A stretch of 37,655 nt of DNA from positions 1 to 37,655 of the forward strand of contig JAOPVD010000034.1 in NCBI GenBank assembly GCA_025966295.1, read 5' to 3'. Shown here piece by piece: positions 2,397 through 23,316 of the stretch (its first letter is position 1; each line of letters begins with the position of its first letter). A program made the translations under genes and the position numbers. The stretch comes from Frankiales bacterium. Lineage in GTDB: Bacteria; Actinomycetota; Actinomycetes; Mycobacteriales; SCTD01. The notes below the pieces were generated by a model, which ran no database searches, was not told where the DNA came from, and saw only the letters and a program-made list of their open reading frames with translations.

Positions 2397-2407
2397 AGAG
2401 GAGAACC

Positions 2408-3312: not shown

Positions 3313-3669
3313 GTGCCGCACTCCCTCGGCGCCCCCCTCGGCTGGCCGGCCCGAGTGCCTGCCGCGCCGGAGCACCCGGCGCGGGCGGACTGCCGCTGCT
3401 ACTGGTGCTGCACCGCCGCCGCCGCCGAGCTCTACCGCGACGCCCTGGCCCGGGTGACCGAAATGAGCCTGACGGAGGCCGCCCGCGCCGCCGGCGCCCG
3501 GACTCCCGAGGAGGTGTCGGTGCTCGCCGCGGAGATCAGCAGCGAGCGTCAGCGGCTCGGGCCTGACGCCGCCGGCCGGGTGGAGGCTGTGGAGGGCCGC
3601 CATCAGGCGCCGGAGCCGACGGGTGCTCCTACTGCGGGCGCAGGGCCATCCACAGCGCCGTCGCGCTGA
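3313..3669 (+). CDS. Hypothetical protein with a CRCYWCC cysteine cluster
   Basis: GGAG 6 nt upstream of GTG at 3313; helical middle segment; the 3' end overlaps the convergent regulator by 41 nt. Confidence 0.4.
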   Translation: MPHSLGAPLGWPARVPAAPEHPARADCRCYWCCTAAAAELYRDALARVTEMSLTEAARAAGARTPEEVSVLAAEISSERQRLGPDAAGRVEAVEGRHQAPEPTGAPTAGAGPSTAPSR

Positions 3670-4204
3670 CCTTGCCCGGGTTGCGCCAGGAGTGCGTCTG
3701 CACGGTGCGGAAGTGCAGCGAGTCCCCCGGCTTGAGCCGGTAGACCTGCTCGTTGACGACGAACTCCAGCTGGCCGTCGAGCACGTGGACCAGCTCCTCG
3801 CCGGGGTGCACCAGAGGGCGGTCGCCGCTGCTCGCGCCCGGCTCGACGGTGGCTCGGGCACCGGCCAGGAAGAAGCGCCCGTAGGTCCCGCTGATACCGG
3901 CCAGGCCGATGCCCGTGTGCGAGGTGTAGATCGGGCGCTGGTCGCCGTCCTTGGTGAAGACGGTGGGGTCGGAGGTGTCCCCCGCCTCGTCGACGAAGTA
4001 CGCCACCGGCCGCCCGAGCGCACCCGCCACCTTCAGCAGCGTGGTGATCGTGGGGACCATCCCGCCCTGCTCGATCTTGTGGATGGCCGCGGCCGAGACC
4101 TCGGAGCGCTCCGCCAGCTGCTGGAGCGACAGGCCGGCCTGCTTGCGCAGGGTGCGGACCTTCGGGCCGATGTCGGACACGATCCGTGTCAGCTCTTCGG
4201 TCAT
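3629..4204 (-). CDS. XRE-family HTH transcriptional regulator with C-terminal cupin domain
   Basis: IGPKVRTLRKQAGLSLQQLAERSEVSAAAIHKIEQG...PTITTLLKVA (HTH_3); HPGEELVHVLDG...LKPGDSLHF...HSWRN (cupin). ATG at 4204 after AAGGAGGGAGG. Confidence 0.93.
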   Translation of the reverse strand: MTEELTRIVSDIGPKVRTLRKQAGLSLQQLAERSEVSAAAIHKIEQGGMVPTITTLLKVAGALGRPVAYFVDEAGDTSDPTVFTKDGDQRPIYTSHTGIGLAGISGTYGRFFLAGARATVEPGASSGDRPLVHPGEELVHVLDGQLEFVVNEQVYRLKPGDSLHFRTVQTHSWRNPGKVSATALWMALRPQ

Positions 4205-4264
4205 GCCCCGCCCTCCCTCCTTGCCCGACCGGGATCCAGAAGGCTGGGCCGAGGTTGCGAACCC

Positions 4265-4329
4265 TTTCACAACCGTGAACTCGGGCGTGGGCTTGACGCT
4301 GCTCCTCCGGGATGTCCAACATAGTGAAC
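4265..4329. promoter_or_regulatory. Divergent promoter region with two 16-bp palindromic operator candidates
   Basis: TTTCAC-AACC-GTGAAC (4265-4280) and GTCCAA-CATA-GTGAAC (4314-4329) flank a TTGACG -35-like hexamer (4293-4298). Confidence 0.65.
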
Positions 4330-4372
4330 GCTTCGTCCCCGATGTTCAATGGCTTGTCCCGAAGGAGTTCAC

Positions 4373-5704
4373 GTGTCCCGTCGCATCGTCATCGTTGGTG
4401 GAGGTGCCGCCGGCATCGGTGCGGCAGGTGCGGCCAAGGGCACCGACCCGACCGCCGAGATCACCGTGTTCACCGAGTACCAGGACGCGGCCTACAGCCC
4501 GTGCGGCATCCCCTACGTGCACGGCAAGGAGATCCCCGACTTCGAGCGCCTGTTCCTCGGAACCAAGCAGCAGTACGCCGACCAGGGGATCGACATCCGC
4601 TACGAGACCCGGGTCGACAGCTACGACCTGGGCGCCAAGACGGTCTCGGTCGGAGGGCAGCAGCTGCCGTTCGACGCCCTGGTGGTGGGCAGCGGCTGGA
4701 ACTACGGCAAGCCCGACGTGCCCGGTAACGAGCTGTCCGGGATCTACTACATGAAGAACATCCGCGAGGCCATGGAGTGGGACAAGGTCCTCGACACCGT
4801 GAAGAGCGCGGTCGTCCTGGAGGCCGGACCGCTCGGACTCGAGATGGTCACGGCCCTCGCCCACCGCGGGATCGAGACGCACCTCGTCGACCCGACCCCG
4901 TGGGCGCTGTCGATGGCGACCGACCCCGACATCGCCAAGCCCGTCGAGGACTCCTGGGTCGAGATGGGCGTCCACCTGCACTTCAACACCAAGCTGGAGG
5001 AGATCCTCGGCGACGAGAACGGCGCCGTCCGCGGAGTCCGCACCTCCGACGGCGACATCCCCTGCCAGCTGCTGGTCGTCGCCACGCACAAGGTCCCGAA
5101 CACTGACATCGGGCAGGCAGCGGGCCTCAAGGTCGGCTCGGCCGGTGGCTTCATCGTCGACGAGTCCATGGCCACCTCGGTGCCGGGCGTGTGGGCGGCC
5201 GGGGACTGCATCGAGGTACCGCACGGCGTCTCCAACGTGCCCGTGCAAGGCCTGTCCGGCAGCCACGCCTACGCCCAGGGCAAGGTGGCGGGCATCAACG
5301 CTGCCGGCGGGCAGCGCGCCTACCAGCCGGTCTACGTGCCGTGGGGCATGGTCGCCGGCAAGTGGATGATCGGCGGGGTGAGCTTCAGCGAGACCCTCGC
5401 GACCGCGCTCGGCGTGCCCTTCGTGATGGGCGTCGCGCAGGGCATCTCGCGCGCCCGGTACTACCCGGACATGAAGCCGGTGAAGGTGAAGCTGCTCGCC
5501 GAGCCGGGGACCCTGCGGCTCATCGGCGCCCAGATGGTGGGTGGCGAGGGCATCAAGGAGCGGGCAGACTTCCTGGCCATGGCAGTGCGTACCGGCATCA
5601 CGCTCAGGGACCTGGCCACCATGGAGAACGTGTACTCGCCGCCCATCGGCGCGCTCAACGAGCCGATCGCGCTGGCCGCGCAGAACGCGCTGTCGAAGCT
5701 GTGA
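4373..5704 (+). CDS. FAD-dependent pyridine nucleotide-disulfide oxidoreductase, CoA-disulfide reductase/NADH oxidase type
   Basis: AAGGAG RBS + GTG; GGGAAG FAD motif, single redox Cys in YSPCGIPY, TSVPGVWAAGDC, RYYP, YSPP dimerisation motif. Confidence 0.9.
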   Translation: MSRRIVIVGGGAAGIGAAGAAKGTDPTAEITVFTEYQDAAYSPCGIPYVHGKEIPDFERLFLGTKQQYADQGIDIRYETRVDSYDLGAKTVSVGGQQLPFDALVVGSGWNYGKPDVPGNELSGIYYMKNIREAMEWDKVLDTVKSAVVLEAGPLGLEMVTALAHRGIETHLVDPTPWALSMATDPDIAKPVEDSWVEMGVHLHFNTKLEEILGDENGAVRGVRTSDGDIPCQLLVVATHKVPNTDIGQAAGLKVGSAGGFIVDESMATSVPGVWAAGDCIEVPHGVSNVPVQGLSGSHAYAQGKVAGINAAGGQRAYQPVYVPWGMVAGKWMIGGVSFSETLATALGVPFVMGVAQGISRARYYPDMKPVKVKLLAEPGTLRLIGAQMVGGEGIKERADFLAMAVRTGITLRDLATMENVYSPPIGALNEPIALAAQNALSKL

Positions 5705-5967
5705 GCGCACCCAGGCAGTCCTTCCCGCGCTGGCTGCGCAGCACCTCCGAGCACCACCTGCTGGTGGTCGCCCAGGCCAAGGTGGCGCGTCGCAACGGGC
5801 TGGTGCCGCCCAAGCCCCACGGTCTCGACATCTTCTGGCAGAAGGTCTACGCGCCCGTCTTCTACCTCCTGCCGTATTCGCTCCGGGCCAAGGCGGCCAA
5901 CGCCCTGCCCGGCAGCCACAAGCAGACCTGGCACCAGCCCGATCAGGTGAAGGGGCCGGCCGTCTGA
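5701..5967 (+). CDS. Hypothetical 88-aa basic protein
   Basis: GTG overlaps the upstream stop (GTGA); reads as a real protein (SFPRWLRST...FWQKVYAPVFYLLPY...LPGSHKQTW) with G/C third positions. Confidence 0.75.
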   Translation: MSAPRQSFPRWLRSTSEHHLLVVAQAKVARRNGLVPPKPHGLDIFWQKVYAPVFYLLPYSLRAKAANALPGSHKQTWHQPDQVKGPAV

Positions 5968-6025
5968 GGCACGACCGCACGACCGCACGCAGAAACGACC
6001 CCTGTCGCCCTTGGAGGCAACACGC

Positions 6026-6517
6026 ATGAGCTCGCAGACCAACAACATCCCGAGGGCCCAAGAGGGCGACATCCTCTACGACACCAGCGAGAAGGTCTTC
6101 CCGGACATCCAGGCGGAGCCGGGTGAGACGGCCTTCGTGTTCATCCACTCGGTGCCCTTCGAGGGCTCCGTGGCGCTGGTCAACCTGCTCACCTCGACGC
6201 GCCTGCGTCGCAAGGGCTTCGACGTCAGCATCGTGCTGTACGGCCCGGCCGTCCTCATCGCCTCCGCCACCCGGGGCTACCCGTCCGTGGGCAAGGAGGG
6301 CTTCCCCGGCAACCTGTCGATGAACAAGCAGCTCAAGGTCCTCATGGACGAGGGCGCCAAGATCTACGCCTGCCGCTTCGCGATGGGTGCGCTCTACGGC
6401 ATGCGCGAGGACGACCTCATCGAGGGCGTCAAGGCCTTCAGCCCGCTCGACGTGCTCGACTCCGCGCTGACCGCGTGGCGTCAGAAGTCCTTCCAGCTCA
6501 ACACCTGGACGGTCTGA
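6026..6517 (+). CDS. MSMEG_0572/Sll0783-family DsrE-like protein (Nit1C NitB homolog)
   Basis: GGAGG RBS; EKVFPDIQAEPGE, HSVPFEGS, RLRRKGF, LYGP, IYACRFA, PLDVLD and terminal TWTV match the recalled family motifs. Confidence 0.9.
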   Translation: MSSQTNNIPRAQEGDILYDTSEKVFPDIQAEPGETAFVFIHSVPFEGSVALVNLLTSTRLRRKGFDVSIVLYGPAVLIASATRGYPSVGKEGFPGNLSMNKQLKVLMDEGAKIYACRFAMGALYGMREDDLIEGVKAFSPLDVLDSALTAWRQKSFQLNTWTV

Positions 6518-6533
6518 CCGGCTTTCCTGCAAG

Positions 6534-6574
6534 GCGTCGTACGGCGGCCCCAGACCTCGGCCGTCGTACGACGC
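6534..6574 (+). terminator. Strong intra-operon hairpin (attenuator or mRNA stabiliser)
   Basis: GCGTCGTACGGCGGCC-N9-GGCCGTCGTACGACGC, 16-bp stem with one G-U pair. Confidence 0.6.
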
Positions 6575-6598
6575 ACCACCCTCGAGGCAAGGACAGTC

Positions 6599-7267
6599 AT
6601 GGACGGCGTTCACGACATGGGCGGCAGGCCCGAGCACTTCGGGCCACTGAAGCCGCTCGACCCGGCGGAGAAGCCCTTCGGTGAGCCCTGGGAGGGACGG
6701 GCCTTTGCCGTGACCCTCCTGGCCAACCGCGCCGCCACGGCCTCCAACCTGCACGCCTTCCGGCACGCGCTCGAGCGCGTCCCCGAGAAGGAGTACCTGG
6801 CCGACTACTACGGCCGCTGGCTCGGCAGCGCCGAGATCCTGCTGGTCGAGAGCGGCCTGCTGGCGCCCGGCGCCGTCGAGGCGCGCGCCCGCAAGCTGCG
6901 CGGCGAGGCGGTCGAGGATCCGGCCGACCCCGAGCCGAACAAGCCCACCATGGAGAGTGGTGGCGGCGGCAACCTACGGAGCGTCGAGGCGGCCCCCGCC
7001 TTCGCCGTAGGTGACCGCGTCACGACCAGCAGCGACGCGGCCAGCGGCCACACCCGCCTGCCCGGCTACGTCCGCGCCAAGGTCGGTACCGTCACGGCGC
7101 TGCGCCCGGCGCAGGTGCTGCCCGACACCGCGGCGCACTTCATCGGGGAGAACCCGCAGCACGTCTACAGCGTCACCTACGACGCCCACGACCTGTGGCG
7201 CGCCGACAGCGAGCCGTTCAGCCTGACCATCGACCTCTACGAGAACTACCTGGAGCGCGCGCAGTGA
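6599..7267 (+). CDS. nthB: Nitrile hydratase beta subunit
   Basis: [54 protein letters not shown]. Confidence 0.95.
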
Positions 7268-7872
7268 CGCAGGCAGACATGCAGCCCGGCATCGACCTGG
7301 CGCTGCGGACCGAGGCCCTCGAGTCCCTGCTGCTGGAGCGCGGCCTGGCCGACACCAAGACGATCGAGACCTTCATCGGGATCTACGAGACCCAGGTCGG
7401 CCCGATGAACGGCGCCAAGGTGGTCGCCAAGGCCTGGACCGACCCGGAGTACAAGGCCCGGCTGCTGGCGGAGGGCACCGCGGCCATCGCGGAGCTGGGC
7501 TTCAAGGGCCCGCAGGGCGAGCACATGGTGGTCCTCGAGAACACACCCGCGGTGCACCACGTCGTGGTCTGCACGCTGTGCTCCTGCTACCCCTGGCCCG
7601 TCCTGGGCCTGCCGCCGTCTTGGTACAAGGACTCGGCGTACCGATCGCGCGTGGTCAGGGAGCCGCGCGCGGTGCTGGCCGAGTGGGGCACCGTGCTCGG
7701 CGACGACGTCGAGGTGAAGGTCGTGGACTCCAGCTCGGAGGTCCGCTACTTCGTGCTGCCCGAGCGCCCTGCGGGCACCGAGAGCCTGTCCGAGGAGGAG
7801 CTCGCCGCCCTCGTCACGCGCGACAACATGGTGGGGGTCACCAAGGTCAGCACCGGGGTCGCTGCCCCGTGA
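7264..7872 (+). CDS. nthA: Nitrile hydratase alpha subunit, cobalt type
   Basis: GTGA overlap; [37 protein letters not shown] (CTLCSCY is the Co-type signature), [18 protein letters not shown]. Confidence 0.96.
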
Positions 7873-8234
7873 CCGCGGCCCTCGACGTCGACGGCGCCGC
7901 TGCGCCGCCCCGGCAGAACGGCGAGCTGGTCTTCGCCGAGCCCTGGGAGGGCCGCGCGTTCGGCCTCGCCATGGCGCTCACCGACGCGGGCGTCATCTCC
8001 TACGACGTGTTCCGCGACGCTTTGATCGCGAAGATCGCCGCCTGGGAGTCCGCCCCGCCCGCGGGCGAGTGCTACTCCTACTACCGCTGCTGGCTGCAGG
8101 CGCTCGAGCAGGTGCTCGCCGACGCCCAGCTCGTGGCTCCGGACGACGTCGCCGCGCGCGCCGCTCTGTTCGCCGTCCGCCCGGCAGGGCACGATCATGA
8201 CCATGACCACGACCACGAGCACCACCACGACTGA
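7869..8234 (+). CDS. Nitrile hydratase accessory/activator protein with His-Asp-rich tail
   Basis: GTGA overlap; [22 protein letters not shown]...[10 protein letters not shown] (beta-like P14K/NhhG-type), ending [15 protein letters not shown]. Confidence 0.9.
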
Positions 8235-8628
8235 GCGGGGCGGCACCAACTCGGCCGTCGCGACCTGGGCGGGCGGATGGCGCTGCGACGTCGAGGCGGG
8301 CGGCTTCTCGCTCGTGGTCGACGAGCCGGTCGACGTCGGCGGTACCGGGCTGGGCCCGATGCCGACCGACCTGCTGCTGGCGTCGATGTCGTCCTGCTAC
8401 GCGCTCGCGCTGGCCTGGGCGGCGAGCAAGCGCGGTGTCGTGCTGCCGGACCTCCAGGTGACGGCGACCGGTACCTACAACGGTCAGAAGTTCGCGGCGC
8501 TGCTGCTCACCGTGACCACGTCGCTGCCGGCGCAGGAGCTGGCGCCGCTGCTCGAACCCGCCAAGCGGGTCTGCTACGTCTCCAACACCTTCGCGCACGC
8601 GCCGGTCATCGAGGTGGAGGTGGCATGA
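8197..8628 (+). CDS. OsmC-family protein
   Basis: VDEPVDVGGTGLGPMPTDLLLASMSSC...AKRVCYVSNT with both conserved Cys; start is 8197 or 8203. Confidence 0.85.
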   Translation: MTMTTTTSTTTTERGGTNSAVATWAGGWRCDVEAGGFSLVVDEPVDVGGTGLGPMPTDLLLASMSSCYALALAWAASKRGVVLPDLQVTATGTYNGQKFAALLLTVTTSLPAQELAPLLEPAKRVCYVSNTFAHAPVIEVEVA

Positions 8629-9179
8629 GCCCGCGCCCGGCCCACGACCACGTGCACGACCCGGCGTGCGCGGCCGCGCACGGCGACGCGGTGCCGCCCA
8701 AGGACACCCGCCGCCTCGTGCTGGTCTTCGTCTCGCCGGTGGCGCAGGAGCTCGCCGCGCTGGCCGACCGGCTGGGCTGGCCGGTCACGGTCGTGGATCC
8801 CGACTCGGCGCTGGTCGACATCGATCCCATCCCCTACGCCCGGACCGTGACGACGGTCGCTGCCGCGCGGCTCGACGACGGCTGCGACGTGGTGCTCTGC
8901 GACCACGGCCGGCCGGAGCTCGGTGACGTGCTCGCCGCGGTGCTGGCGCAGCCGGCGCGCTGGGTGGGGGTCATGGGCAGCCTGCGGCACACCGCCCCGC
9001 ACATCGCGGCGCTGCGCAGCCGGGGCGTGGCCGAGGACGACATCGCCCGGGTCCATCGGCCCATCGGCCTCGACATCGGCTCGCACACCCCGCCGGAGAT
9101 CGCGATCGCCACGGTGGCCGGGCTTCTCGCCGACCGCAACGGCCGCCCCGGCGGTCCGTTCGCCGACACCAGCAGCTGA
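8625..9179 (+). CDS. Stand-alone XdhC/CoxI Rossmann-domain protein
   Basis: ATGA overlap; WVGVMGSLRH and RVHRPIGLDIGSHTPPEIAIA are XdhC C-terminal motifs; no N-terminal XdhC/CoxI domain. Confidence 0.85.
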   Translation: MSPRPAHDHVHDPACAAAHGDAVPPKDTRRLVLVFVSPVAQELAALADRLGWPVTVVDPDSALVDIDPIPYARTVTTVAAARLDDGCDVVLCDHGRPELGDVLAAVLAQPARWVGVMGSLRHTAPHIAALRSRGVAEDDIARVHRPIGLDIGSHTPPEIAIATVAGLLADRNGRPGGPFADTSS

Positions 9180-9224
9180 TCGTGCGCCCGCCCGCGCCAG
9201 CGTTGGCCTAGCCGGGAGAAGGCC

Positions 9225-10637
9225 TCAGCGTCCCCGTGCCAGGCGCGCGTCGAGGTCGAGCAGCGCATCCCGGAAGCAGGCCAGCGGCGCCGCGGCGACC
9301 CCCGCCCCGACCTGCCCGGTGCCCTGGCGGTTGTCCAGGATCCCGGTGGTCACCTTGGGCGTGATGCCGTGCTCCACGACCCGTCGTACGTCGACGGCGA
9401 GGGGCGTGCCGCGGCCGCCCAGGGTCGGCAGGGTGAAACGGCTCGAGCGCCCGACGCAGATCCGCTCGAGCTCGGCCGTCAGCTCGCCCGCAGCGGCAAG
9501 GCCTCCCACCAGCTGACCGACGGCGGGCGAGCCTGCGGCGGCGGCGCCGCCCAGGCCGATGAGCTCCAGGACCGCGCTGTCGCCGATGTCCGGAGCGGCG
9601 TCGTCGTCGCCCCTGCCGGGGTGGTACAGCGCGTTGCCGACCATGGGCGCGGGGGCGAGGAACCACTCGTCGTTCCCGGACAGCCTGGTGCCGAACTCCG
9701 TGCCGTTGCGGGCCATGGTCGTGACCACCGAGGAGCCCTCGACCTGCCCGGCCCAGCCCGTCAGAGCGCGGGCCGCGGCCATCGCCAGGGTCAGGAACAA
9801 CAGGTGGTTGCTCGACAGGTAGCGACCGACCTCGACCCGGCGTGGGTCGGCACTGGCCATCAAGGAGGGCAGCAGGTGCTTGATCAGCAGGTTGGTGGAG
9901 GCCTGGGTGCGGACGTGGACGTCGTCGCCCATGGCCACGCCCTGGGCGGCGAACGCCAGGACCTCCACCGGTCCGCTGTGGCGCAGCGTCTCGGCGAGCA
10001 GCGGGGCGACGGCCTCGCGCAGCAGGACCAGCCGGTCGATCGCCCCCGGGGTGTCACGGCCGAACCACGCGACGTCCCCGGAGCCCTGCCCCAGCGGCGC
10101 CCAGGACGCCACCCCGCCGGCGGCGAGCTCGACGACCCACACCGGCGTCGTCGGGCCCATCACGGTGGCCATCGGGACGACACCGCCCGACTCGTTGGCG
10201 GGCCGCAGCGCGACGGAACCGCTCGCCAGCAGGGCATCTGCGGCCTCGACGTCGGCTGCCCAGCCCTCGGCCACGACCGCCGCGCGCATCGAGCGGCGCA
10301 GCGGGTCACCCGCGTCGGCCAGCTCCATCGCCGGACCCGCGTGCAGCAGCACCCGACCCTGCAGGCCGGGCACGACCTCGGACGCCGGGCGCACATCGGT
10401 GAGAGTCGGGACGCCGGTGTCCAGCCGGCGCAGGACCTCCGCGTTGGCCTCGTCAATGGGCCCGGTCAGCGGGCCCGAGAGCCGGCGCAGCGCGTCCAGG
10501 GCGACGGGGTCGCCGCCGGCGGGGATACGCCAGTCCACCTGGACGACCGGTCGTCCCTGGGCCGCGACGGCGTCCGCGAACAGCGGCAGCCCGACGTTGA
10601 CGACGGACACCTCGTCCGGAAGGGCAATGGGGTTCAT
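9225..10637 (-). CDS. DUF1116 family protein (YahG/YlbE-AllG-like)
   Basis: VVNVGLPLFA...VDWRIPAGGD N-terminus (YahG architecture), LLHAGP, AMGDD, TTMARNGTEFG, PDIGDSAVLE, GQVGAG. Confidence 0.88.
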   Translation of the reverse strand: MNPIALPDEVSVVNVGLPLFADAVAAQGRPVVQVDWRIPAGGDPVALDALRRLSGPLTGPIDEANAEVLRRLDTGVPTLTDVRPASEVVPGLQGRVLLHAGPAMELADAGDPLRRSMRAAVVAEGWAADVEAADALLASGSVALRPANESGGVVPMATVMGPTTPVWVVELAAGGVASWAPLGQGSGDVAWFGRDTPGAIDRLVLLREAVAPLLAETLRHSGPVEVLAFAAQGVAMGDDVHVRTQASTNLLIKHLLPSLMASADPRRVEVGRYLSSNHLLFLTLAMAAARALTGWAGQVEGSSVVTTMARNGTEFGTRLSGNDEWFLAPAPMVGNALYHPGRGDDDAAPDIGDSAVLELIGLGGAAAAGSPAVGQLVGGLAAAGELTAELERICVGRSSRFTLPTLGGRGTPLAVDVRRVVEHGITPKVTTGILDNRQGTGQVGAGVAAAPLACFRDALLDLDARLARGR

Positions 10638-16029: not shown

Positions 16030-16032
16030 GGC

Positions 16033-16048
16033 GTTCACCATGGTAGAC
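16033..16048. promoter_or_regulatory. Operator candidate between divergent comA and AIR-synthase-like genes
   Basis: GTTCAC-CATG-GTAGAC; contains a TACCAT -10-like hexamer on the minus strand. Confidence 0.55.
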
Positions 16049-16085
16049 AACCGGCTCCCCGCCGACGCCGCTTCAGGAGGCTCCC

Positions 16086-17033: not shown

Positions 17034-17038
17034 GCAGG

Positions 17039-17515
17039 TCATAGCGCGATCGTCATGTCCTGGTGGAGCACACCGAGGTAGTCGGCGGGCTCGCCTACCG
17101 GTGTCCACCCGAGGTGCACGAAGAAGGTCGTGTTCACGGCCTGCACCGTCGCGTCCATGCGGCGACCGCCGGCGGCGGCCGCGGTGGCGACGGCGGTCCG
17201 GACCAGCGGTGCTCCGATGCCGGCGTGCCGGTGCTCGGGCAGGACGGCGAGCCGGTCGCCCTTCCACACCCCGTCGCTGAGCGGGTAGAGCCGGACGGTG
17301 CCGGCGGGCTCGTCATCGACGAAGCCCAGGACGTGCACCACCTGGGCGTCGTCGTCGTGGCTGTCGCGGTCGTCGCCGTCGAACAGCCGCTGCTCCTGCA
17401 CGAACACGGCCCGCCGGATGCGGTGGTGCGTCGCGAGCTCGTCGGGGCCCTGGACGGACCGGCAGCGGAGCGCGTCAGGCCTTCGTGAACAGGGGGAGGG
17501 AAGGACGTCCGTCAC
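17039..17515 (-). CDS. GNAT acetyltransferase, MSMEG_0567 N-terminal family (Nit1C NitE homolog)
   Basis: RIRRAVFVQEQRLF..DRD..DD, GTVRLY, WKGDRLAV, GIGAPLVRTAV, FFVHLGW, HQDM. Confidence 0.88.
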   Translation of the reverse strand: MTDVLPSPCSRRPDALRCRSVQGPDELATHHRIRRAVFVQEQRLFDGDDRDSHDDDAQVVHVLGFVDDEPAGTVRLYPLSDGVWKGDRLAVLPEHRHAGIGAPLVRTAVATAAAAGGRRMDATVQAVNTTFFVHLGWTPVGEPADYLGVLHQDMTIAL

Positions 17516-18665
17516 GAGTGCCTCCGTCCGAACGCTCGAACGCGCCCATGCCCGAGCAGGCCTGGCAGCGGGCGCAGCCGGCGGCGACGCCCGAGCTCGA
17601 CATCCCCTTTTGCGCCAGGTACGGCACCACCTGGCGGTAGACCGCCTCGACCGCCTCGCGCGGCGGCGGCAGGAAGTCCTCCATCAGGCTGCCGGGCACC
17701 GGACGCAGCGGCACGATGAACGGGTAGACGCCCAGGTCGATGGCCCGCTTGCAGCCCTCGACGGTCAGCTTCTCGTCCTCGCCAATGCCGAGGATCACGT
17801 AGGTCGACACCTGGCCGGCGCCGAAGGCCTTCACCGCTCGTTCCCAGGCCCCGAAGTAGGCCTCGATGCCCCAGCGCGCCTTGCCCGGTGCGACCCGGGC
17901 GAGCACCGCCGGGTCGAAGGTCTCGATATGGATGCCGACCGAGTCGATGCCCAGGTCGGCCACCCGGTCGATGACGTCGAGGTCGGACGGCGGTTCGAAC
18001 TGCACCTGCACCGGCAGCCCGGCCGCCTCCTTCACGGCCTGCCCGCAGCGACCGACGTACATCGCCCCGCGGTCGGGGGTAGCGGTGCTGCCCGTGGTCA
18101 GGGTCGCGTCGACCGCGCCGTCGAGCTCCTTTGCCGCGAGGGCCACCTCGGCCAGCATCGCCGGGGTCTTCTTCGCGATGGTGCGGCCCTGGGCCAGCGT
18201 GACGCCGATGCCGCAGAACTGGCACTGGTCGTCGTTGCCCCAGTAGGCGCAGGTCTGCAGCACCGTGCTGGCCACGGAGTCCAGGTGCAGCAGGGCGATC
18301 TGGTGGTAGGGGATGCCGTCGGCGGTCGTCAGGTCGTAGTACTTCGGGCGGGGGGCCAGGGCGGCGGTCGCGAGCCGCTCGCTGCCCTGGTAGACCGCCC
18401 AGCTGCCGTCGTCCTCCCCACGCAGGGCATAGGGCGAGCTCTCGACGTACGACGCACTCGTCGGCACCGTGGTCTGCACGCCCTCGATGTACAGCATCCC
18501 GGCGTCGGCCGGTCCGGCGCCGCCGGCGCGGGCGGACAGCGGCACCTCGACCCGCAGCCCGGAGCTCTGCAGCGACGTCAGCAGCTGCGCCAGGGCCTCG
18601 GCGGACAGCACGGGGGCCGGAGCTGGGGTGTCGATGCCGTGGGCATCGGACGTGGTGAGGGTCAT
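17475..18665 (-). CDS. MSMEG_0568-family radical SAM protein (Nit1C NitD homolog)
   Basis: RAGGAGPAD, PKYYDLTTADGIPY, LQTCAYWGNDDQCQFC, LTTG, QFEPP, GQVSTYVILGIGE, YPFIVPLRP, GCARCQACS. ATG at 18665 after GGAGAAGG. Confidence 0.92.
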   Translation of the reverse strand: MTLTTSDAHGIDTPAPAPVLSAEALAQLLTSLQSSGLRVEVPLSARAGGAGPADAGMLYIEGVQTTVPTSASYVESSPYALRGEDDGSWAVYQGSERLATAALAPRPKYYDLTTADGIPYHQIALLHLDSVASTVLQTCAYWGNDDQCQFCGIGVTLAQGRTIAKKTPAMLAEVALAAKELDGAVDATLTTGSTATPDRGAMYVGRCGQAVKEAAGLPVQVQFEPPSDLDVIDRVADLGIDSVGIHIETFDPAVLARVAPGKARWGIEAYFGAWERAVKAFGAGQVSTYVILGIGEDEKLTVEGCKRAIDLGVYPFIVPLRPVPGSLMEDFLPPPREAVEAVYRQVVPYLAQKGMSSSGVAAGCARCQACSGMGAFERSDGGTRDGRPSLPLFTKA

Positions 18666-18695
18666 GCGGTGTGGCCCTTCTCCGGGAGGTGCGGC

Positions 18696-18711
18696 ATTCA
18701 CTATAGGAAAT
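18696..18711. promoter_or_regulatory. Operator candidate upstream of the radical SAM gene
   Basis: ATTCAC-TATA-GGAAAT containing TATAGT on the minus strand; a TTGACA lies 23 bp further upstream (non-canonical spacing). Confidence 0.5.
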
Positions 18712-18730
18712 GTCGGTGGTCGGTCCCCTG

Positions 18731-19396
18731 TCAAGGGTTGGGGGTACCTCGCCGCAGCGCCTCGGCCCGGGCGTCGCGCTCGCCGGCGCCCGGATACGAC
18801 GTGGCGGACGCACCTGTCTCGCGGGACTCCGTGACCGAACCGGTGGCCAGATCGACGTGCAGCGGCTCGACGGCGTGCACCACGCTGGTGAAGTCCTCGT
18901 CGGGGGTGGCCGTCACGAGCAGCGCCCGGCCGGTGGCGACCTCGACCTCGAGCCGGTGGTAGGGCACGAACGGGTCGCCCTCGGGGTGACCCGCTTCCTC
19001 TACCACGACCCATTCCTGGCCGGAGCGACGCGCGTCGGCGAGCGTGCGCAACCGCCGCGCGACGGCCTGCTCGCCCACCACCTCCCGGTGCCGCATCGCC
19101 AGCGCGGCGTCGGCCACCAGGGCGAGGTCGAGCTCGGCAGGGCTCATCCCGCTGTCGGTCAGCACGTCGACCACGAGGTCGGGGCCGCGCTCGGCGGCGA
19201 GCAGGAGGGCGGCGGTCGACGGCCCCAGCTCACGCAGGCGGTCGACCGTCATCCGGACGAGCTGCACCACCCGCTGGTAGATGTCCGGCCGCGAGGTCAC
19301 CGAGGGGTACAGGCGCGCTTCGGCCTGCTGCCAGGCTGCGCTGGTCAGCATCGGCACCGAACTGTCGTCAAAAGCGTGATTCCCGGGCTCGGTCAT
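18731..19396 (-). CDS. Hypothetical protein
   Basis: 221-aa ORF filling the gap, GGAAGGG upstream, protein-like composition (WQQAEARLYP, ALAMRHRE, PYHRLEV). Confidence 0.75.
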   Translation of the reverse strand: MTEPGNHAFDDSSVPMLTSAAWQQAEARLYPSVTSRPDIYQRVVQLVRMTVDRLRELGPSTAALLLAAERGPDLVVDVLTDSGMSPAELDLALVADAALAMRHREVVGEQAVARRLRTLADARRSGQEWVVVEEAGHPEGDPFVPYHRLEVEVATGRALLVTATPDEDFTSVVHAVEPLHVDLATGSVTESRETGASATSYPGAGERDARAEALRRGTPNP

Positions 19397-19415
19397 TGCG
19401 TTTCCCTTCCGGCGA

Positions 19416-19431
19416 GTTCACTATGCTGCAC
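19416..19431. promoter_or_regulatory. Operator candidate overlapping a TATGCT -10 element
   Basis: GTTCAC-TATG-CTGCAC, 14/16 identical to the reverse complement of 4314-4329; directly precedes ATG at 19432. Confidence 0.6.
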
Positions 19432-20418
19432 ATGTCATCTCCTATCCGATGCGCCACGCCCCTGACGCGGGGTGTAGCCGTCGTCGCCGTGGGTGGCAAC
19501 GCCCTGACCGCCGAGACCCAGCGGGGAACCGCCGACGAGATCGCTGCCAACGCCGCGCAGATGGCCAGCTGCCTCGGTGAGCTGGTCGCCGCAGGCTGGC
19601 AGGTCGCCGTCGTCCACGGCAACGGCCCGCAGGTGGGCAACCTGGCGATGCAGCAGGACGCCGCCGAGGACCTCGTCCCCGTGCAGCCGCTGCACCAGCT
19701 CTGCGCGATGACGCAGGGACAGCTCGGCAGCGTGCTGGTGCGCGCGGTCGACCGCGAGTGCGGCGCGGGGAAGGCGGTCTGCGTCGTCACCCACGTCGGC
19801 GTCGACCCGCAGGACCCGGCGTTCGAGACGCCGACCAAGCCCATCGGCCCCTTCTTCGACGAGGACCGGGCGCAGGCCTACGCCGCCCAGCGGGGCTGGA
19901 CGGTCGCGGAGGACTCCGGGCGCGGCTGGCGCCGGGTCGTCGCCTCGCCGCGACCCGAGTCGATCGTCGAGATGCAGGCCATCCGCACGCTGCTCGAGGC
20001 CGGCCACGTCGTGCTCGCCGCCGGCGGCGGCGGGGTGGCGGTTGATGCCGGCAGCCTCGACGGGGTCGACGCGGTCATCGACAAGGACCGCGCGTCGGCA
20101 GCGCTCGCCACCGCGGTCGGCGCCACCGAGCTGTACCTGCTGACCGGCGTCGACTGTGTGCTGCTGGACTTCGGCACGCCACGGCAGCGACCCGCCCACC
20201 GCATGACGCAGCAGGAAGCCGCCCAGCACCTGGCGGACGGGCAGTTCCCCGCGGGCAGCATGGGCCCCAAGGTCGAGGCAGCACTGCGCTTCCTGGACGA
20301 CGGCGGGCACCGCGCCATCATCACGTCCGTCGGGCGCCTGGCGGAAGCCGTGGCCGGCGATCCCACCGCGGGCACGAGCATCGAGCGGGCGCACGCCGCC
20401 ACCCGGACGGCGTCATGA
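19432..20418 (+). CDS. arcC: Carbamate kinase (ArcC/YahI-like)
   Basis: VAVGGNAL, HGNGPQVG, AMTQGQLG, DPAFETPTKPIGPF, WRRVVASPRP, DAVIDKD, GSMGPKV. Exact start uncertain. Confidence 0.94.
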   Translation: MSSPIRCATPLTRGVAVVAVGGNALTAETQRGTADEIAANAAQMASCLGELVAAGWQVAVVHGNGPQVGNLAMQQDAAEDLVPVQPLHQLCAMTQGQLGSVLVRAVDRECGAGKAVCVVTHVGVDPQDPAFETPTKPIGPFFDEDRAQAYAAQRGWTVAEDSGRGWRRVVASPRPESIVEMQAIRTLLEAGHVVLAAGGGGVAVDAGSLDGVDAVIDKDRASAALATAVGATELYLLTGVDCVLLDFGTPRQRPAHRMTQQEAAQHLADGQFPAGSMGPKVEAALRFLDDGGHRAIITSVGRLAEAVAGDPTAGTSIERAHAATRTAS

Positions 20419-21950
20419 GCGCCAGCGGCCTGTCGGTCCACAAGGACACCTACCTGGACTCGCTGCTCCTGATGGTGTGCACCGTCAGCATGGACGGCCT
20501 GCAGGGCGTCACCTGGGCGGGCGCGACGATGGCCAGCCCCCGCGGTCTGGAGGACCTTGCGGCGGCCGGTTTCACCGGCGTCGAGGGCCTCGGCGCCAAC
20601 GACCTCGTCCTCGCCGTCAAGGCCGAGGACGAGACCGCTCTGGAGGCCGCCCTCGAAGCGGGCCGGCAGGCGGCCTTCAGCGAGCGGGAGACGGCCGGAC
20701 CCGCGAGCGAGAAGCCTCCGACGAGCCTGGCCGACGCGGCCCGACGCCAGGCCGGCAGCAACGTCGCGATCGTGTCGGTGCCCGGGGACTACGCCGCCCT
20801 CGAGGCCCATCACGCCCTGACGGCAGGTCTGCACGTCCTGCTGTTCAGCGACAACGTGCCGCTGGAGCAGGAGATCGAGCTCAAGGAGCGGGCCGCCGCG
20901 CTCGGGCTGCTCGTCATGGGCCCCGGAGCCGGTACGGCGGTGCTGGGAGGCACCGGACTCGGCTTCGCCAACACCCTCACCGCCTCCAGCGGCGGTGCGG
21001 TCGGTGTCGTCGCGGCGGCTGGTACCGGCGCGCAGGAGGTCTCGGCGCTGCTCGACCGCTGGGGCGTCAAGGTCTCCCAGGTGATCGGAGTCGGCGGCCG
21101 CGACTTGTCCGCCCCCGTGCAGGGCCGGATGGCGCAGGAGGCTGCCCGGGCCCTGGAGGCCGATCCCGGCACCACCGCCGTGCTGCTCGTCTCCAAGCCC
21201 CCGGACCCGGCCGCCGCGCAAGCGGTCCTGGCCGAGTGCCGGGGGACGAGGGCGGTGGCCGTCTTCCTCGGCCTGGACGACCTCGATCCGCCGGACGGCG
21301 TGACCCTCTCGCCGACCCTGGAGCAGGGAGCGCTCGCGGCGGCGCGACTGACGGGCGCGACCCCGCCGAGCCTCACCGAGGGGCTCAGGGACAAGGTGGC
21401 CGCGGTCACGCTCGACGCCCGGCGCACCAGGGTCCAGGGCCTGTTCTCGGGCGGGACGCTCTGCTACGAGGCGCAGTGGGTCCTCGAGAGCCTGCTCGGG
21501 CCGGTCTACTCCAACGAGCCGCTGCGCAAGGCACACTCGGTCGCGGCGGCACCGGCCGGCGCGCACGTGCTGCTTGACCTGGGAGCTGAGGAGTACACCG
21601 TGGGACGCCCCCACCCCATGATCGACCCGAGCGGCCGGCTCGAGCTGCTGCGGGCGGTGGCGGACGACCCGGAGGTGGCCGTGGTGCTGATGGACGTCGT
21701 CATCGGGCACGGCAGCCACACCGACCCGGCGGGGCAGATCGCCCCCGTCGCCGCGGAGCTGATGGCCGGCGGGGGCCCTCAGGTCGTCACCTACCTGCTC
21801 GGCACCGAGGGCGACCCGCAGGCCTACTCCCGCCAGCGGCGGATCCTCGAAGACGCCGGCTGCCTCGTTCCGGAGACCAACGCCCGGGCCGCCTACGTGG
21901 CGGCCGCGCTGGTGCGCCGCGAGCCCGAGCTCGTCGAGCTGGGCACATGA
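20415..21950 (+). CDS. FdrA/YahF-like acyl-CoA synthetase family protein
   Basis: YLDSLLLM, SVPGDYAA, FSDNV, GTGAQE, GGRDLS, VSKPP, GLFSGGTLCYEA, DLGAEEYTVGRPHPMIDP. Confidence 0.92.
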   Translation: MSASGLSVHKDTYLDSLLLMVCTVSMDGLQGVTWAGATMASPRGLEDLAAAGFTGVEGLGANDLVLAVKAEDETALEAALEAGRQAAFSERETAGPASEKPPTSLADAARRQAGSNVAIVSVPGDYAALEAHHALTAGLHVLLFSDNVPLEQEIELKERAAALGLLVMGPGAGTAVLGGTGLGFANTLTASSGGAVGVVAAAGTGAQEVSALLDRWGVKVSQVIGVGGRDLSAPVQGRMAQEAARALEADPGTTAVLLVSKPPDPAAAQAVLAECRGTRAVAVFLGLDDLDPPDGVTLSPTLEQGALAAARLTGATPPSLTEGLRDKVAAVTLDARRTRVQGLFSGGTLCYEAQWVLESLLGPVYSNEPLRKAHSVAAAPAGAHVLLDLGAEEYTVGRPHPMIDPSGRLELLRAVADDPEVAVVLMDVVIGHGSHTDPAGQIAPVAAELMAGGGPQVVTYLLGTEGDPQAYSRQRRILEDAGCLVPETNARAAYVAAALVRREPELVELGT

Positions 21951-23116
21951 CCCACCGCCCCGTCGCGCTGCTGACCTACTCCACCAAGCCGCGCGGCGGT
22001 GTGGTGCACACCCTGGAGCTGGCCGAGGCGCTGAGCGACCTCGGGGTGCCGGTGCGGGTCGTGGCCCTGGGTGACCCGGGGGCCGGCTTCTTCCGGCCGG
22101 TGCGCGTGCCGGTCACCCTGGTGCCAGGCCCGGTGGGCACTGAGACGCTGGAGGAGAAGGTCGCCGGCGGGATCGACTGCCTCGAGGGCGCGCTCGCCGA
22201 GATCGTGCGGGCCACGCCCGACGTGGTTCTGCACGCCCAGGACTGCATGAGCGCCCGGGCGGCTGCCCGCGTCCGTGACGCCGGCAGCGGCGTACCGGTC
22301 GTGCGGACCGTCCACCACGTCGACGACTTCTCCAGCGCGATGCTGATGGACTGCCAGCGGCAGGCGATCCTCGAGCCCGACGTCGTCCTGGCGGTCACTG
22401 AGGTCTGGCGGGGGATCCTCGAGCGCGACTACGGGGTTGCCAGCGCGGTCGTACCCAACGGCGTCGACGTCCGACGCTTCGCCACCGCCTCGCAGGAGCG
22501 CGCGGCGGAGCTGCGCCGCTCGGTCGGCGCGGCGGACCGCCCGCTGATCCTGGGCGTCGGCGGCATCGAGCCACGCAAGGGCACCGACGACCTGGTCCGG
22601 GCAGTGGCGGACCTGCGCAGCCGTACCGGCCTGGACCCCGTGCTCGCCGTCGTCGGCGGCCACTCCTTCCAGGACTACAAGGCCTACCGGGACAGGGTCC
22701 TGGCGGAGCTGCCCTCCCTCGGCCTGGTGCTCGGTCGCGACATCGTCCAGGTCGGGACGGTGCCCGAGGCCGACATGGCCGCCTGGTACGCCGCTGCCGA
22801 CCTGCTCGCCTTCCCCTCGGTGAAAGAGGGCTTCGGTCTGGCCGTGCTGGAGGCGATGGCCGCCGGCACCCCCGTCGTCACCAGCGACCTCCCCGTGTTC
22901 CGTGAGTACCTCGTCGACGGTCGCGACGCCCTGCTCGTCCCGGTCGGGAACGTGCCGGCGCTGTCCTCAGCGCTGGAGGCGGTCCTGCGGGACACCGCAC
23001 TGCGGACCCGGCTGGTCGCAGCCGGAACCGGCGTCGCGCAGGCGTTCACCTGGCCGGCCAGCGGCCGCCGGCACCTTGAGGTCTACGCGGACCTGCCGAG
23101 CACCGCCCGGGTGTGA
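21947..23116 (+). CDS. MSMEG_0565-family glycosyltransferase (GT4)
   Basis: LLTYSTKPRGGVVHTLELAEAL, HAQDCMSA, RTVHHVDDF, GGIEPRKG, GGHSFQDY, FPSVKEGFGLAVLEAMA. Confidence 0.92.
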   Translation: MTHRPVALLTYSTKPRGGVVHTLELAEALSDLGVPVRVVALGDPGAGFFRPVRVPVTLVPGPVGTETLEEKVAGGIDCLEGALAEIVRATPDVVLHAQDCMSARAAARVRDAGSGVPVVRTVHHVDDFSSAMLMDCQRQAILEPDVVLAVTEVWRGILERDYGVASAVVPNGVDVRRFATASQERAAELRRSVGAADRPLILGVGGIEPRKGTDDLVRAVADLRSRTGLDPVLAVVGGHSFQDYKAYRDRVLAELPSLGLVLGRDIVQVGTVPEADMAAWYAAADLLAFPSVKEGFGLAVLEAMAAGTPVVTSDLPVFREYLVDGRDALLVPVGNVPALSSALEAVLRDTALRTRLVAAGTGVAQAFTWPASGRRHLEVYADLPSTARV

Positions 23117-23226: not shown

Positions 23227-23316
23227 TGGCGGTGGCGGTGGGATTTGAACCCACGGACGGCTTGCACCGTCACACGCTTTCGAGGCGTGCTCCTTCGGCC
23301 GCTCGGACACGCCACC
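23227..23316 (-). tRNA. tRNA-Ser(CGA)
   Basis: Reverse complement GGTGGCG...CACGC-CTCGAAA-GCGTG, long variable arm, GGTTCAAATCC, CGCCACC-G-CCA. Confidence 0.97.

Follow-up and report, generated by a model that had tools for sequence, protein, structure and literature searches.

The window analysed here is a contig of 37,655 nucleotides (JAOPVD010000034.1, assembly GCA_025966295.1) from a metagenome-assembled genome (MAG) of a soil actinobacterium (Frankiales), and the subject of this work is a cluster of 22 genes encoded between positions 3629 and 23116. The cluster brings together genes of the Nit1C type, a Co-type nitrile hydratase (NHase), homologues of all the xcb genes for coenzyme M (CoM) biosynthesis, and FdrA/AllG family proteins with a carbamate kinase. 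The 22 genes very probably form one functional unit, and they are passed on together, by descent or by transfer, in a block that survives internal reshuffling. The reading we favour, at about an even chance, is that of one conserved, co-regulated nitrogen-scavenging unit which would make its own CoM-type thiol and form carbamoyl phosphate from a cyano or carbamoyl group. The participation of a CoM-like thiol in cyanide or nitrile nitrogen metabolism, as proposed in the initial annotation of this DNA, is plausible from the gene content, which suggests a hitherto undescribed role of CoM outside alkene oxidation.

Organisation of the gene cluster

As the window is 73% G+C and uniform in composition, genes have been called from the frame signal of third-codon-position GC (GC3) and their products scanned against Pfam and NCBIfam; scores are given below as bits/family cut-off. 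The 22 genes found by these means are organised in six transcription units, with the regulator gene counted in. A regulator with HTH_3 and Cupin_2 domains (3629-4270, minus strand) is the first unit. Divergent from it is a plus-strand unit of eight genes encoding a flavoprotein, an 88-residue orphan, NitB, the β, α and accessory proteins of NHase, an OsmC-like protein and an XdhC_C protein. The third unit is made up of six genes on the minus strand, comA-xcbA-xcbD-xcbE-xcbC-allG, and converges on the flavoprotein unit. A single plus-strand gene encoding a Sll0787-type AIR-synthase-like (AIRS-like) protein forms the fourth unit, divergent from comA. The fifth, on the minus strand, encodes a 221-residue orphan, a MSMEG_0568 radical SAM protein (rSAM) and a MSMEG_0567 GNAT protein, and the sixth, divergent from the orphan unit, comprises carbamate kinase, fdrA and a MSMEG_0565 glycosyltransferase (GT4).

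All the families named in the initial annotation are found in the window, and its count of about 20 genes holds in substance; its five transcription units have become six. The arrangement it described is also seen here: nitB (6011-6517) precedes nthB (6599-7267), the yahG-like allG is coupled to the comA operon (there is a 4-nt overlap of its ATG at 10637 with the stop codon of xcbC), the GT4 gene is coupled to the yahF-like fdrA (its ATG at 21947 overlaps the fdrA stop), and comA is divergent from the nitF-like, that is AIRS-like, gene. To these are added the flavoprotein, both orphans, the OsmC-like and XdhC_C proteins and the HTH-cupin regulator, of which it had overlooked the thiol-redox proteins.

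The source MAG consists of 3.08 Mb in 378 contigs, of which the window is one, and is 88.4% complete, a limit to which every absence from the MAG reported below is subject. Near-identical DNA occurs in 18 soil-metagenome DNA runs from 12 studies, and no RNA run was found among the sequencing runs carrying it. No riboswitch has been identified within the cluster at the Rfam gathering thresholds. An origin of the cluster as a genomic island was considered and rejected, since the GC content is even over the window (0.67-0.76).

Conservation of the cluster across genomes

An alignment motif derived from homologues of XcbA was searched against one genome per prokaryotic species. The scan yielded 77 loci, all labelled Actinomycetota except one 'Acidobacteria' MAG. 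They are encoded in MAGs of Mycobacteriales and Frankiales, in Geodermatophilus ruber, Blastococcus, Sphaerimonospora, Microbispora, Sphaerisporangium and Nocardioides, and in Jiangellaceae, Nanopelagicales, Euzebyales and many Acidimicrobiia. The presence of the 22 window proteins and of three flank proteins was assessed by tblastn (E < 1e-8, coverage of at least 0.5, at most 10 kb from XcbA), genes that are frameshifted or lie more than 10 kb from XcbA being scored absent. The tallies are restricted to the 52 loci that span 20 kb or more; the 25 shorter loci of the 77 were left out.

ComA and XcbA are found in 52/52 of these loci; XcbC, XcbD and the AIRS-like protein in 50 each; AllG in 47; GNAT, FdrA and GT4 in 46 each; rSAM in 45 and carbamate kinase in 44. 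These 11 core genes occur all together in 37/52 loci. The 221-residue orphan is present in 39 loci, XcbE in 30, the regulator in 28, the NHase α subunit and the OsmC-like protein in 26 each, the flavoprotein in 22, NitB and the 88-residue orphan in 21 each and the XdhC_C protein in one. Each of the flank genes (dnaX, tadA and a neighbouring open reading frame) is found in 0/52.

As these loci had been selected by a motif of the clade itself, a second sample was drawn by means of the XcbA family hidden Markov model (HMM). In an even sample of 400 genomes from the phylum, with the window's own added, the HMM scored over its cut-off in 11/401. Seven of the 10 other loci have enough context, and AllG and further parts of the cluster lie beside the Xcb genes in all seven; the remaining three (L090-L092) are too short to judge. 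The co-occurrence of the modules in other genomes, set beforehand as the test of the composite cluster, is thus seen in the full core of 37/52 loci, in 7/7 loci of the independent sample and in 17/22 families on a plasmid of Methylocystis described below.

The order of the genes varies among Actinomycetes, Acidimicrobiia, MAGs of Euzebyales and the alphaproteobacterial plasmid while the genes stay linked. In Acidimicrobiia the genes run in one direction as ComA-XcbA-XcbD-XcbC-NthB-NthA-accessory-rSAM-GNAT-AllG, and the NHase-bearing loci of this class also carry genes for the CbtA/CbtB cobalt transporter and an AmiS/UreI amide/urea channel. The slot of the entry enzyme is occupied by NHase in 26/52 loci and by an enzyme of the Amidohydro_2 family in 11/52, and neither is present in 15/52. 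In Geodermatophilus and Blastococcus the cluster takes a minimal form, which retains Xcb, GT4, GNAT, rSAM, AIRS and the flavoprotein and lacks NHase, nitrilase and NitB. Culturable carriers of the cluster include Geodermatophilus ruber DSM 45317, Sphaerimonospora mesophila NBRC 14179, Microbispora hainanensis DSM 45428 and Nocardioides daejeonensis MJ31 (L021, L024, L026 and L028). Among cultured strains with NHase none was identified that carries the complete cluster; in N. aquiterrae JCM 11813 (L077) NHase is present, whereas carbamate kinase, FdrA and GT4 are missing within 10 kb.

The XcbA of the window has 2014 database homologues (E ≤ 1e-5) among 8000 candidates scored, and the 120 listed are all at least 68% identical to it. 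The 'Acidobacteria bacterium' locus (L015, JANWJC010000053.1) is a MAG contig of 6.9 kb which may be mis-binned, since its genes are 57-80% identical to those of the window (XcbA 62%). In a complete-looking genome of the phylum sample (L088, about 1712229-1713075) XcbA is matched as two overlapping fragments and ComA likewise as two fragments, which suggests that this copy of the cluster is frameshifted or decaying.

A related cluster on a Methylocystis plasmid

A plasmid of the alphaproteobacterial methanotroph Methylocystis iwaonis (NZ_CP143315.1) encodes 17/22 of the window families with identities of 27-67%, and the association of xcb, Nit1C-type and AllFG-type genes therefore extends beyond one phylum. 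The plasmid genes are arranged as flavoprotein, 88-residue orphan, NitB and AllG, then GT4 and FdrA, then the regulator and OsmC. Its rSAM-GNAT-AIRS genes adjoin a nitrilase of the Nit6803 family and a protein of the Pnap_2097 family, followed by ComA-XcbA-XcbD-XcbE-XcbC. In the stretch of the plasmid examined there is no NHase and no XdhC_C. Different enzymes thus occupy the predicted hydrolytic slot: in Methylocystis it is a nitrilase, in actinobacteria a Co-type NHase or an Amidohydro_2 enzyme. Genes of a cytochrome bd ubiquinol oxidase adjoin the nitrilase-bearing cluster of Methylocystis (L095, 9263-11841); cyanide-insensitive oxidases of the bd type are neighbours of Nit1C in the Pseudomonas cyanotrophs.

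An operator-like motif at the divergent promoters

Three copies of an operator-like motif have been identified in the window. One, TGTCCAACATAGTGAAC (4312-4329, plus strand), lies in the divergent promoter region of the regulator and the flavoprotein; another, TGTCTACCATGGTGAAC (16026-16042, minus strand), lies in the region between comA and the AIRS-like gene and overlaps the comA start codon; the third, ATGTGCAGCATAGTGAAC (19416-19433, minus strand), lies between the 221-residue orphan gene and carbamate kinase and overlaps the carbamate kinase ATG at 19432, which falls in the left half-site. The 10-mer CATAGTGAAC, with at most one mismatch, occurs three times in the 37.6-kb window against 0.25 expected, and none of 100 shuffles reached three. 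Its sites (4320, 16033 and 19416) are exactly the three divergent promoter regions, and it is found nowhere else in the window.

The motif is kept at equivalent positions in related loci. Across 88 loci there are 92 matches, of which 68, in 35 loci, are within 150 nt of the starts of cluster units, the starts counted being those of carbamate kinase and the orphan, AIRS and comA, the flavoprotein and the regulator, and rSAM. For 100 permuted motifs such matches averaged 2.4 and never exceeded 49. The extended consensus aTGTnnAnCATAGTGAAC is an imperfect palindrome around GTTCAC / GTGAAC, a shape suited to an HTH protein that binds as a dimer, the simplest candidate being the regulator encoded in the cluster. 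The regulator resembles PuuR (weak match, 69/211; PF01381, PF07883) and is probably the protein that binds the operator-like TGTnnAnCATAGTGAAC sites. The motif is absent from the Methylocystis promoters.

The putative coenzyme M biosynthesis operon

The minus-strand operon between 10634 and 16041 encodes homologues of the full five-family XcbABCDE set. ComA/XcbB, a phosphosulfolactate synthase (15268-16041; PF02679 270.3/25.2; TIGR03849 243.2/280), probably starts at the ATG at 16041, the longest open reading frame beginning with TTG at 16050. It is followed by a protein of the XcbA family (DUF7714; 14399-15271; NF052538 301.8/150; PF24830), in which six cysteines are conserved in at least 95% of 82 sequences. 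The XcbD-like protein belongs to the adenylosuccinate-lyase family (13071-14402; NF052536 553.9/600) and is 51% identical to its homologue in Nocardioides sp. JS614. The XcbE-like protein is a pyridoxal phosphate (PLP) enzyme of the D-cysteine desulfhydrase family (12145-13074; NF052537 237.3/450) with 47% identity to XcbE of Xanthobacter, and the XcbC-like lyase of the aspartase/fumarase superfamily (10634-12148; NF052535 445.9/575) is 48% identical to the JS614 and 36% identical to the Xanthobacter protein. Every junction from comA to allG is a 4-nt overlap of start and stop codons. The CoM gene set recognised in the initial annotation, comprising ComA, two lyases and a PLP enzyme, is present; XcbA had been missed, and with it the set is complete.

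In the available text of Wu et al. 2022 (PMC9457059), XcbA-E are described as a five-gene bacterial pathway that makes CoM in vitro. In Xanthobacter, XcbC converts phosphosulfolactate to sulfoacrylate and XcbA acts as a [2Fe-2S] reductase in the final step of CoM synthesis. The window encodes homologues of all five xcbABCDE products of Xanthobacter autotrophicus Py2 (plasmid pXAUT01) and Nocardioides sp. JS614 (plasmid pNOCA01), in the order of JS614 (ComA-XcbA-XcbD-XcbE-XcbC) and with identities of 41-51% to JS614 and 36-47% to Xanthobacter. On the two plasmids, which served as controls, the xcb genes are situated beside CoM-dependent epoxide enzymes and none of the partner genes of the window is found. 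In contrast, the neighbours in the window are Nit1C-type, NHase and AllFG/carbamate kinase genes, and no alkene monooxygenase adjoins them or is encoded in the MAG. No homologue of epoxyalkane:CoM transferase (EaCoMT) has been found in the MAG (E ≤ 1e-3) or in 87 related loci, and for 2-ketopropyl-CoM oxidoreductase/carboxylase (2-KPCC) the MAG contains only generic flavoproteins with 22-32% identity. In a search of plasmids, the 25 matches listed out of 209 include EaCoMT of at least 45% identity only for Xanthobacter, JS614 and M. chubuense.

FdrA, AllG and carbamate kinase

The last gene of the xcb operon encodes a protein of the AllG/YlbE/YahG family (DUF1116; 9225-10637, minus strand; PF06545 203.8/27), with PDB entry 3clq as a solved relative (E 3.9e-61). 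Its probable partner is encoded in the plus-strand unit at the other end of the cluster, where a carbamate kinase (19432-20418; NF009007 281.1/266; TIGR00746 328.7/358.25), a protein of the FdrA/AllF/YahF family resembling the α subunit of succinyl-CoA synthetase (20415-21950; NF004760 363/433; PF00549, PF02629) and GT4 are joined by 4-nt start/stop overlaps. AllFGH of E. coli is described in the available text of PMC11326118 as the oxamate carbamoyltransferase, which supplies a catabolic carbamate kinase with carbamoyl phosphate and needs all three genes; FdrA and AllG correspond to two of its three subunits. Genes of the FdrA family, the AllG family and carbamate kinase are likewise present and linked in the window, as in AllFGH with AllK. 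The yahEFGI set of E. coli is paralogous to the AllFGH/AllK genes. Unlike the arrangement in E. coli, allG of the window is split from fdrA and joined into the xcb operon, and there are no allantoin genes; the substrate of FdrA/AllG in the window is presumably not oxalurate.

Nitrile hydratase and thiol-redox proteins

The two NHase subunits are encoded on the plus strand by overlapping genes. The β subunit (6599-7267; TIGR03888 169.8/152.2; PF02211, PF21006) is followed by the α subunit, NthA (7264-7872; TIGR01323 293.4/249.85), which has the metal-site motif VCTLCSCY at residue 103. The T and Y of this motif are marks of Co-type nitrile hydratases. The best PDB matches of NthA are also of the Co type (e.g. 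4ob1, E 2e-92), the match to the homologous γ subunit of thiocyanate hydrolase being far weaker (E 3e-45); in bit scores NthA reaches 293 as a nitrile hydratase and 193 against a cut-off of 291 as a thiocyanate hydrolase. On the basis of these matches NthA is classified as a bona fide Co-type nitrile hydratase. An accessory (activator) protein of NHase is encoded next (7869-8234; TIGR03889 60.8/46).

Several products of the same unit are related to thiol chemistry. The first gene (4349-5704) encodes a flavoprotein resembling CoA-disulfide reductases (CoADR) and NADH oxidases (Pyr_redox_2; TIGR03385 237/578.8), whose true start is possibly the GTG at 4373. Its best PDB matches are NADH oxidases and CoA-disulfide or persulfide reductases, and as in that group it has a single invariant cysteine, C52 (YSPCGIPY), in 27/27 sequences. 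NitB (6011-6517), of the MSMEG_0572/Sll0783 family, is DsrE-like (TIGR04044 198.6/109.85; PF02635) and its Cys121 is invariant in 28/28 sequences. The thiol peroxidase-type protein of the OsmC/Ohr family (8197-8628; PF02566) has two cysteines, C67 and C126, with conservation of 1.00 and 0.97 in 35 sequences.

The 88-residue orphan (5701-5967), whose start overlaps the flavoprotein stop (GTGA), has no Pfam or NCBIfam match and only unnamed or uninformative clusters in the ESM Atlas. It is always encoded between the flavoprotein and NitB, and the Methylocystis copy is 45% identical; locus L035 was left out of its alignment (A3) owing to an in-frame stop. The unit ends with a Rossmann protein consisting of XdhC_C only (8625-9179; PF13478), translationally coupled behind the OsmC-like gene. 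As its single occurrence among the 52 loci is in L003, it is a recent, near-private addition of this lineage.

Nit1C-type genes and the 221-residue orphan

Nit1C clusters (nitBCDEFGH) are known from Pseudomonas cyanotrophs, from Synechocystis (sll0783-0787) and from Mycobacterium smegmatis (MSMEG_0565-0572, 'gpr'). NitB, rSAM, GNAT and GT4 of the window pass the cut-offs of the respective families. The GNAT acetyltransferase of the MSMEG_0567/Sll0786 family is NitE-like (17039-17515, minus; TIGR04045 106.3/68.45). The MSMEG_0568 rSAM is NitD-like (17475-18701, minus; TIGR04043 378.8/303.7), its start being at 18734, 18701 or 18665, and has two sets of invariant cysteines (C151, C160, C163 and C376, C379, C382). 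GT4 (21947-23116, plus) matches TIGR04047 with 368.1/259.85. For the NitF-like protein of the PurM superfamily (16086-17033, plus) the Sll0787 family is the best NCBIfam match, though under its cut-off (TIGR04049 254.1/321.3), and the best solved relative is HypE (2z1e, E 7.9e-10). Next among the NCBIfam matches is methanogenesis marker protein 2 (165 bits, E 2.2e-48), a family which to our knowledge has no assigned function and is restricted to CoM-using methanogens.

In place of the nitrilase of published Nit1C clusters the window has the Co-type NHase, and it has in addition xcbABCDE, FdrA/AllG and carbamate kinase. The description of the cluster as nitrilase-less in the initial annotation is borne out for the MAG as well, in which the best match to TIGR04048, on another contig, scores 25.7/502.6. 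A tblastn search of 87 related loci, with the nitrilase of Methylocystis as query, likewise detected none. The MSMEG_0570 family (NitG, TIGR04042) has no match in the MAG, and the best match there to the MSMEG_0569 flavoprotein (NitH, TIGR04046) scores 52.2/498.35, again on another contig.

The 221-residue orphan (18731-19396, minus) is specific to the cluster and has no match in Pfam or NCBIfam and no usable match in the ESM Atlas. Its listed homologues are unnamed or 'hypothetical' save one (P0213) labelled 'MoxR-like ATPase' by JGI. Another (P0230) comes from a 'Candidatus Dormibacteraeota' MAG and hints that the cluster, or a part of it, is present in a further phylum. The idea that the orphan is a diverged AllH was rejected (hhalign probability 0.07%).

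Proposed function of the cluster

Nit1C has been tied to cyanide assimilation, its nitrilase handles cyanide poorly and the essentiality of the nitrilase for growth on cyanide is called uncertain in the available text of PMC7815647. According to the available text of PMC6039565, nitrogen starvation induces the MSMEG_0565-0572 cluster of M. smegmatis more than 500-fold, and under that condition the cluster confers resistance to peroxide and raises the NADPH/NADP ratio. These accounts of the cyanide link and of the induction fit a role in nitrogen limitation, and the likely physiological role of the cluster, judged from its genes, is the scavenging of nitrogen under such conditions. That nitrogen would be released from cyano or carbamoyl compounds in a thiol-dependent manner is a proposal we regard as evenly balanced.

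In the scheme proposed, the comA-xcbA-xcbD-xcbE-xcbC operon would make CoM or a very close sulfonate thiol in situ, as alkene oxidisers likewise keep xcb beside their CoM-using enzymes. The single-cysteine flavoprotein, the DsrE-like NitB and the OsmC-like protein may keep or use the thiol in disulfide, persulfide or sulfenate states. A variable entry enzyme would admit a cyano or amide substrate, being NHase here, a nitrilase in Methylocystis and an Amidohydro_2 enzyme or none elsewhere. Cyanide would be captured on the thiol as an S-cyano compound (an organic thiocyanate), which NHase would hydrate to an S-carbamoyl thiol, a step with a presumed parallel in the thiocarbamate step of thiocyanate hydrolase. 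FdrA/AllG, as a relative of oxamate carbamoyltransferase, would then carry out a phosphorolysis like that of succinyl-CoA synthetase with the thiol as leaving group, giving carbamoyl phosphate, from which carbamate kinase would form NH3, CO2 and ATP. The HypE-like AIRS protein, rSAM, GNAT and GT4 of the Nit1C core may build or modify the carrier. This S-cyano/S-carbamoyl cycle is the most specific form of the scheme that we favour, and is in itself rather unlikely to be correct.

The synthesis of cyanide ligands by HypF and HypE provides an analogy of mechanism only. HypE removes water from an S-carbamoyl cysteine and so leaves an S-cyano group. The AIRS-like protein has HypE as its nearest solved relative and chemistry of carbamoyl phosphate is encoded in the cluster; unlike that system, the cluster has no HypF, and the AIRS-like protein ends in ...TNLRS without the C-terminal cysteine of HypE. 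Thiocyanate hydrolase is a similar analogy, through the homology of its γ subunit to NthA.

A number of observations weigh against the favoured reading of a nitrogen-scavenging unit with its own CoM-type thiol. As for the thiol, XcbC, XcbD and XcbE are under the naming cut-offs of their NCBIfam families (445.9/575, 553.9/600 and 237.3/450), and XcbE is undetected in 22/52 loci. In a concatenated tree of the 65 loci having all four genes at a coverage of at least 0.85, every sequence from a composite cluster groups apart from the two proven CoM makers (support 1.0), so that on these alignments the Xcb proteins of the composite clusters are a sister clade to those of the proven CoM makers, and their product need not be CoM. 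Given the separate clade and the scores under cut-off, 'CoM or a close relative' is the limit of the evidence. As for carbamoyl phosphate, AllH (YlbF, PF11392) has been found neither in the window nor in the MAG by tblastn with four AllH queries from related loci (E ≤ 0.01), and it is present in only 7/77 loci; Methylocystis has FdrA/AllG and no carbamate kinase in the region examined. NHase is absent from 26/52 loci, and the 15 loci with neither NHase nor amidohydrolase within 10 kb keep FdrA/AllG. The carbamoyl intermediate therefore cannot depend on NHase, and the S-cyano cycle is not the whole story, as NHase is dispensable in half of the loci. In the proposed cycle rSAM, GNAT, AIRS and GT4 are without a role. 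The counts from the 77 loci describe this clade only, as the loci were picked by its XcbA motif. With regard to regulation, the comA copy of the motif overlaps the coding codons ATG-GTG-AAC, and its conservation may therefore in part be coding constraint; a crude GlnR-box pattern (at most one mismatch) has no match at the promoters and one match in the window, inside xcbA, against 2.55 expected, and lends no support to control by GlnR.

Alternative explanations

The main alternative is that the cluster is biosynthetic, and we regard it as a tentative possibility. A CoM core would be elaborated by GT4, GNAT, rSAM and the AIRS-like protein into a modified, nitrogen-poor thiol or redox cofactor of low molecular weight. 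The product would be an antioxidant or thiol buffer under nitrogen limitation, with the flavoprotein as disulfide reductase and OsmC as peroxidase, and NHase, FdrA/AllG and carbamate kinase would be accessory recyclers of nitrogen. CoM itself contains no nitrogen, and mycothiol and bacillithiol are built by a GT4 enzyme and later steps; GT4 of the window has further matches to MshA (102.6 bits) and to BshA (67.4 bits). The conserved cysteines of the flavoprotein (one), OsmC (two) and NitB, the retention of Xcb and the four modifying proteins with the flavoprotein in the minimal cluster of Geodermatophilus and Blastococcus, and the Gene Ontology term 'biosynthetic process' given by RefSeq to Nit1C-type genes of Methylocystis point the same way, as do the peroxide resistance and the rise in NADPH/NADP under nitrogen starvation in M. 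smegmatis (PMC6039565), although xcb genes are not part of the M. smegmatis cluster as described in the available text of that paper. This explanation leaves unaccounted for the tight coupling of AllG to xcbC and of FdrA to carbamate kinase as well as the recurrence of a nitrile-hydrolysing or -hydrating enzyme in the clusters of two phyla.

The separation of the Xcb clade from the proven CoM makers, the three scores under cut-off and the lack of an epoxyalkane:CoM transferase in the MAG and the 87 loci would also agree with Xcb-like enzymes that handle another Michael adduct of phosphoenolpyruvate, for example with cyanide in place of sulfite, giving intermediates of the cyano-acrylate type to be hydrolysed by nitrilase or NHase. 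The preference of Nit1C nitrilases for α,β-unsaturated nitriles, fumaronitrile being converted to 3-cyanoacrylate (available text of PMC7815647), would be in line with this, given the resemblance to sulfoacrylate that we suppose. We consider this improbable: the Xcb set of five homologues is complete down to the specialised reductase XcbA, whose set of cysteines is conserved, the order of the genes is that of the CoM-using Nocardioides JS614, and ComA matches the phosphosulfolactate synthase family strongly (270.3 bits). We know of no test of cyanide addition by any ComA. A chance pile-up of functionally unlinked cassettes between two tRNA-Ser genes, which the initial annotation had named as the refuting case, is highly improbable. 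Such genes do flank the region (1472-1560 and 23227-23316), and the NHase, xcb, Nit1C and allFG-carbamate kinase modules each occur separately in other organisms; against this stand the 37/52 loci with all 11 core genes and shared flanks in none of the 52, the linkage of the modules despite reshuffling, the 7/7 informative loci of the phylum sample, the 17/22 families on the alphaproteobacterial plasmid, the translational coupling, the common motif at the divergent promoters and the uniform GC content.

Regions flanking the cluster

On the left, dnaX (1-1314, minus) is adjoined by a bacterial small signal recognition particle RNA (1295-1393, minus), next to which is a tRNA-Ser(GGA). A c-di-GMP-I riboswitch (RF01051, 2319-2398, plus; 46.8 bits against a gathering score of 35) lies directly upstream of a plus-strand coding signal at about 2401-3283, whose product is weakly similar to CglD / Amuc_1099 pilus-like proteins. 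On the right, the minus strand between 23353 and 25626 encodes tadA and then two adjacent paralogues of a tRNA adenosine deaminase-associated protein (TIGR03941; 146 and 131 bits).

Implications for coenzyme M and Nit1C

No account of Nit1C together with CoM, or of the whole combination, has been found in the literature searched (subscription journals and supplements lay outside the search), which agrees with the initial annotation. According to the available text of a 2024 paper (PMC11507031), genes for CoM biosynthesis are known only from methanogens and alkene-utilising bacteria. Here the xcb genes are found without alkene or epoxide enzymes in dozens of genomes of soil and aquatic Actinomycetota and on a plasmid of a methanotroph, and it may be in this pathway, rather than in alkene oxidation, that bacterial xcb genes have their main natural setting. 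There is a realistic chance that the cluster represents a new CoM-dependent pathway.

The Nit1C core gains constant partners in these genomes, namely a pathway to a sulfonate thiol and an AllFG-type enzyme forming carbamoyl phosphate. That CoM or a close sulfonate thiol serves as a carrier of one-carbon cyano or carbamoyl groups in aerobic soil bacteria, by way of S-cyano-CoM and S-carbamoyl-CoM, is in itself unlikely. If true, it would give CoM a third role, in addition to those in archaea (methanogenesis and alkane activation) and in bacteria (the carboxylation of epoxides). It would also provide a thiol cofactor for the long-unexplained Nit1C core and an energy-yielding route of cyanide assimilation, and the puzzle of Nit1C would become one of concrete chemistry, testable in culturable strains.

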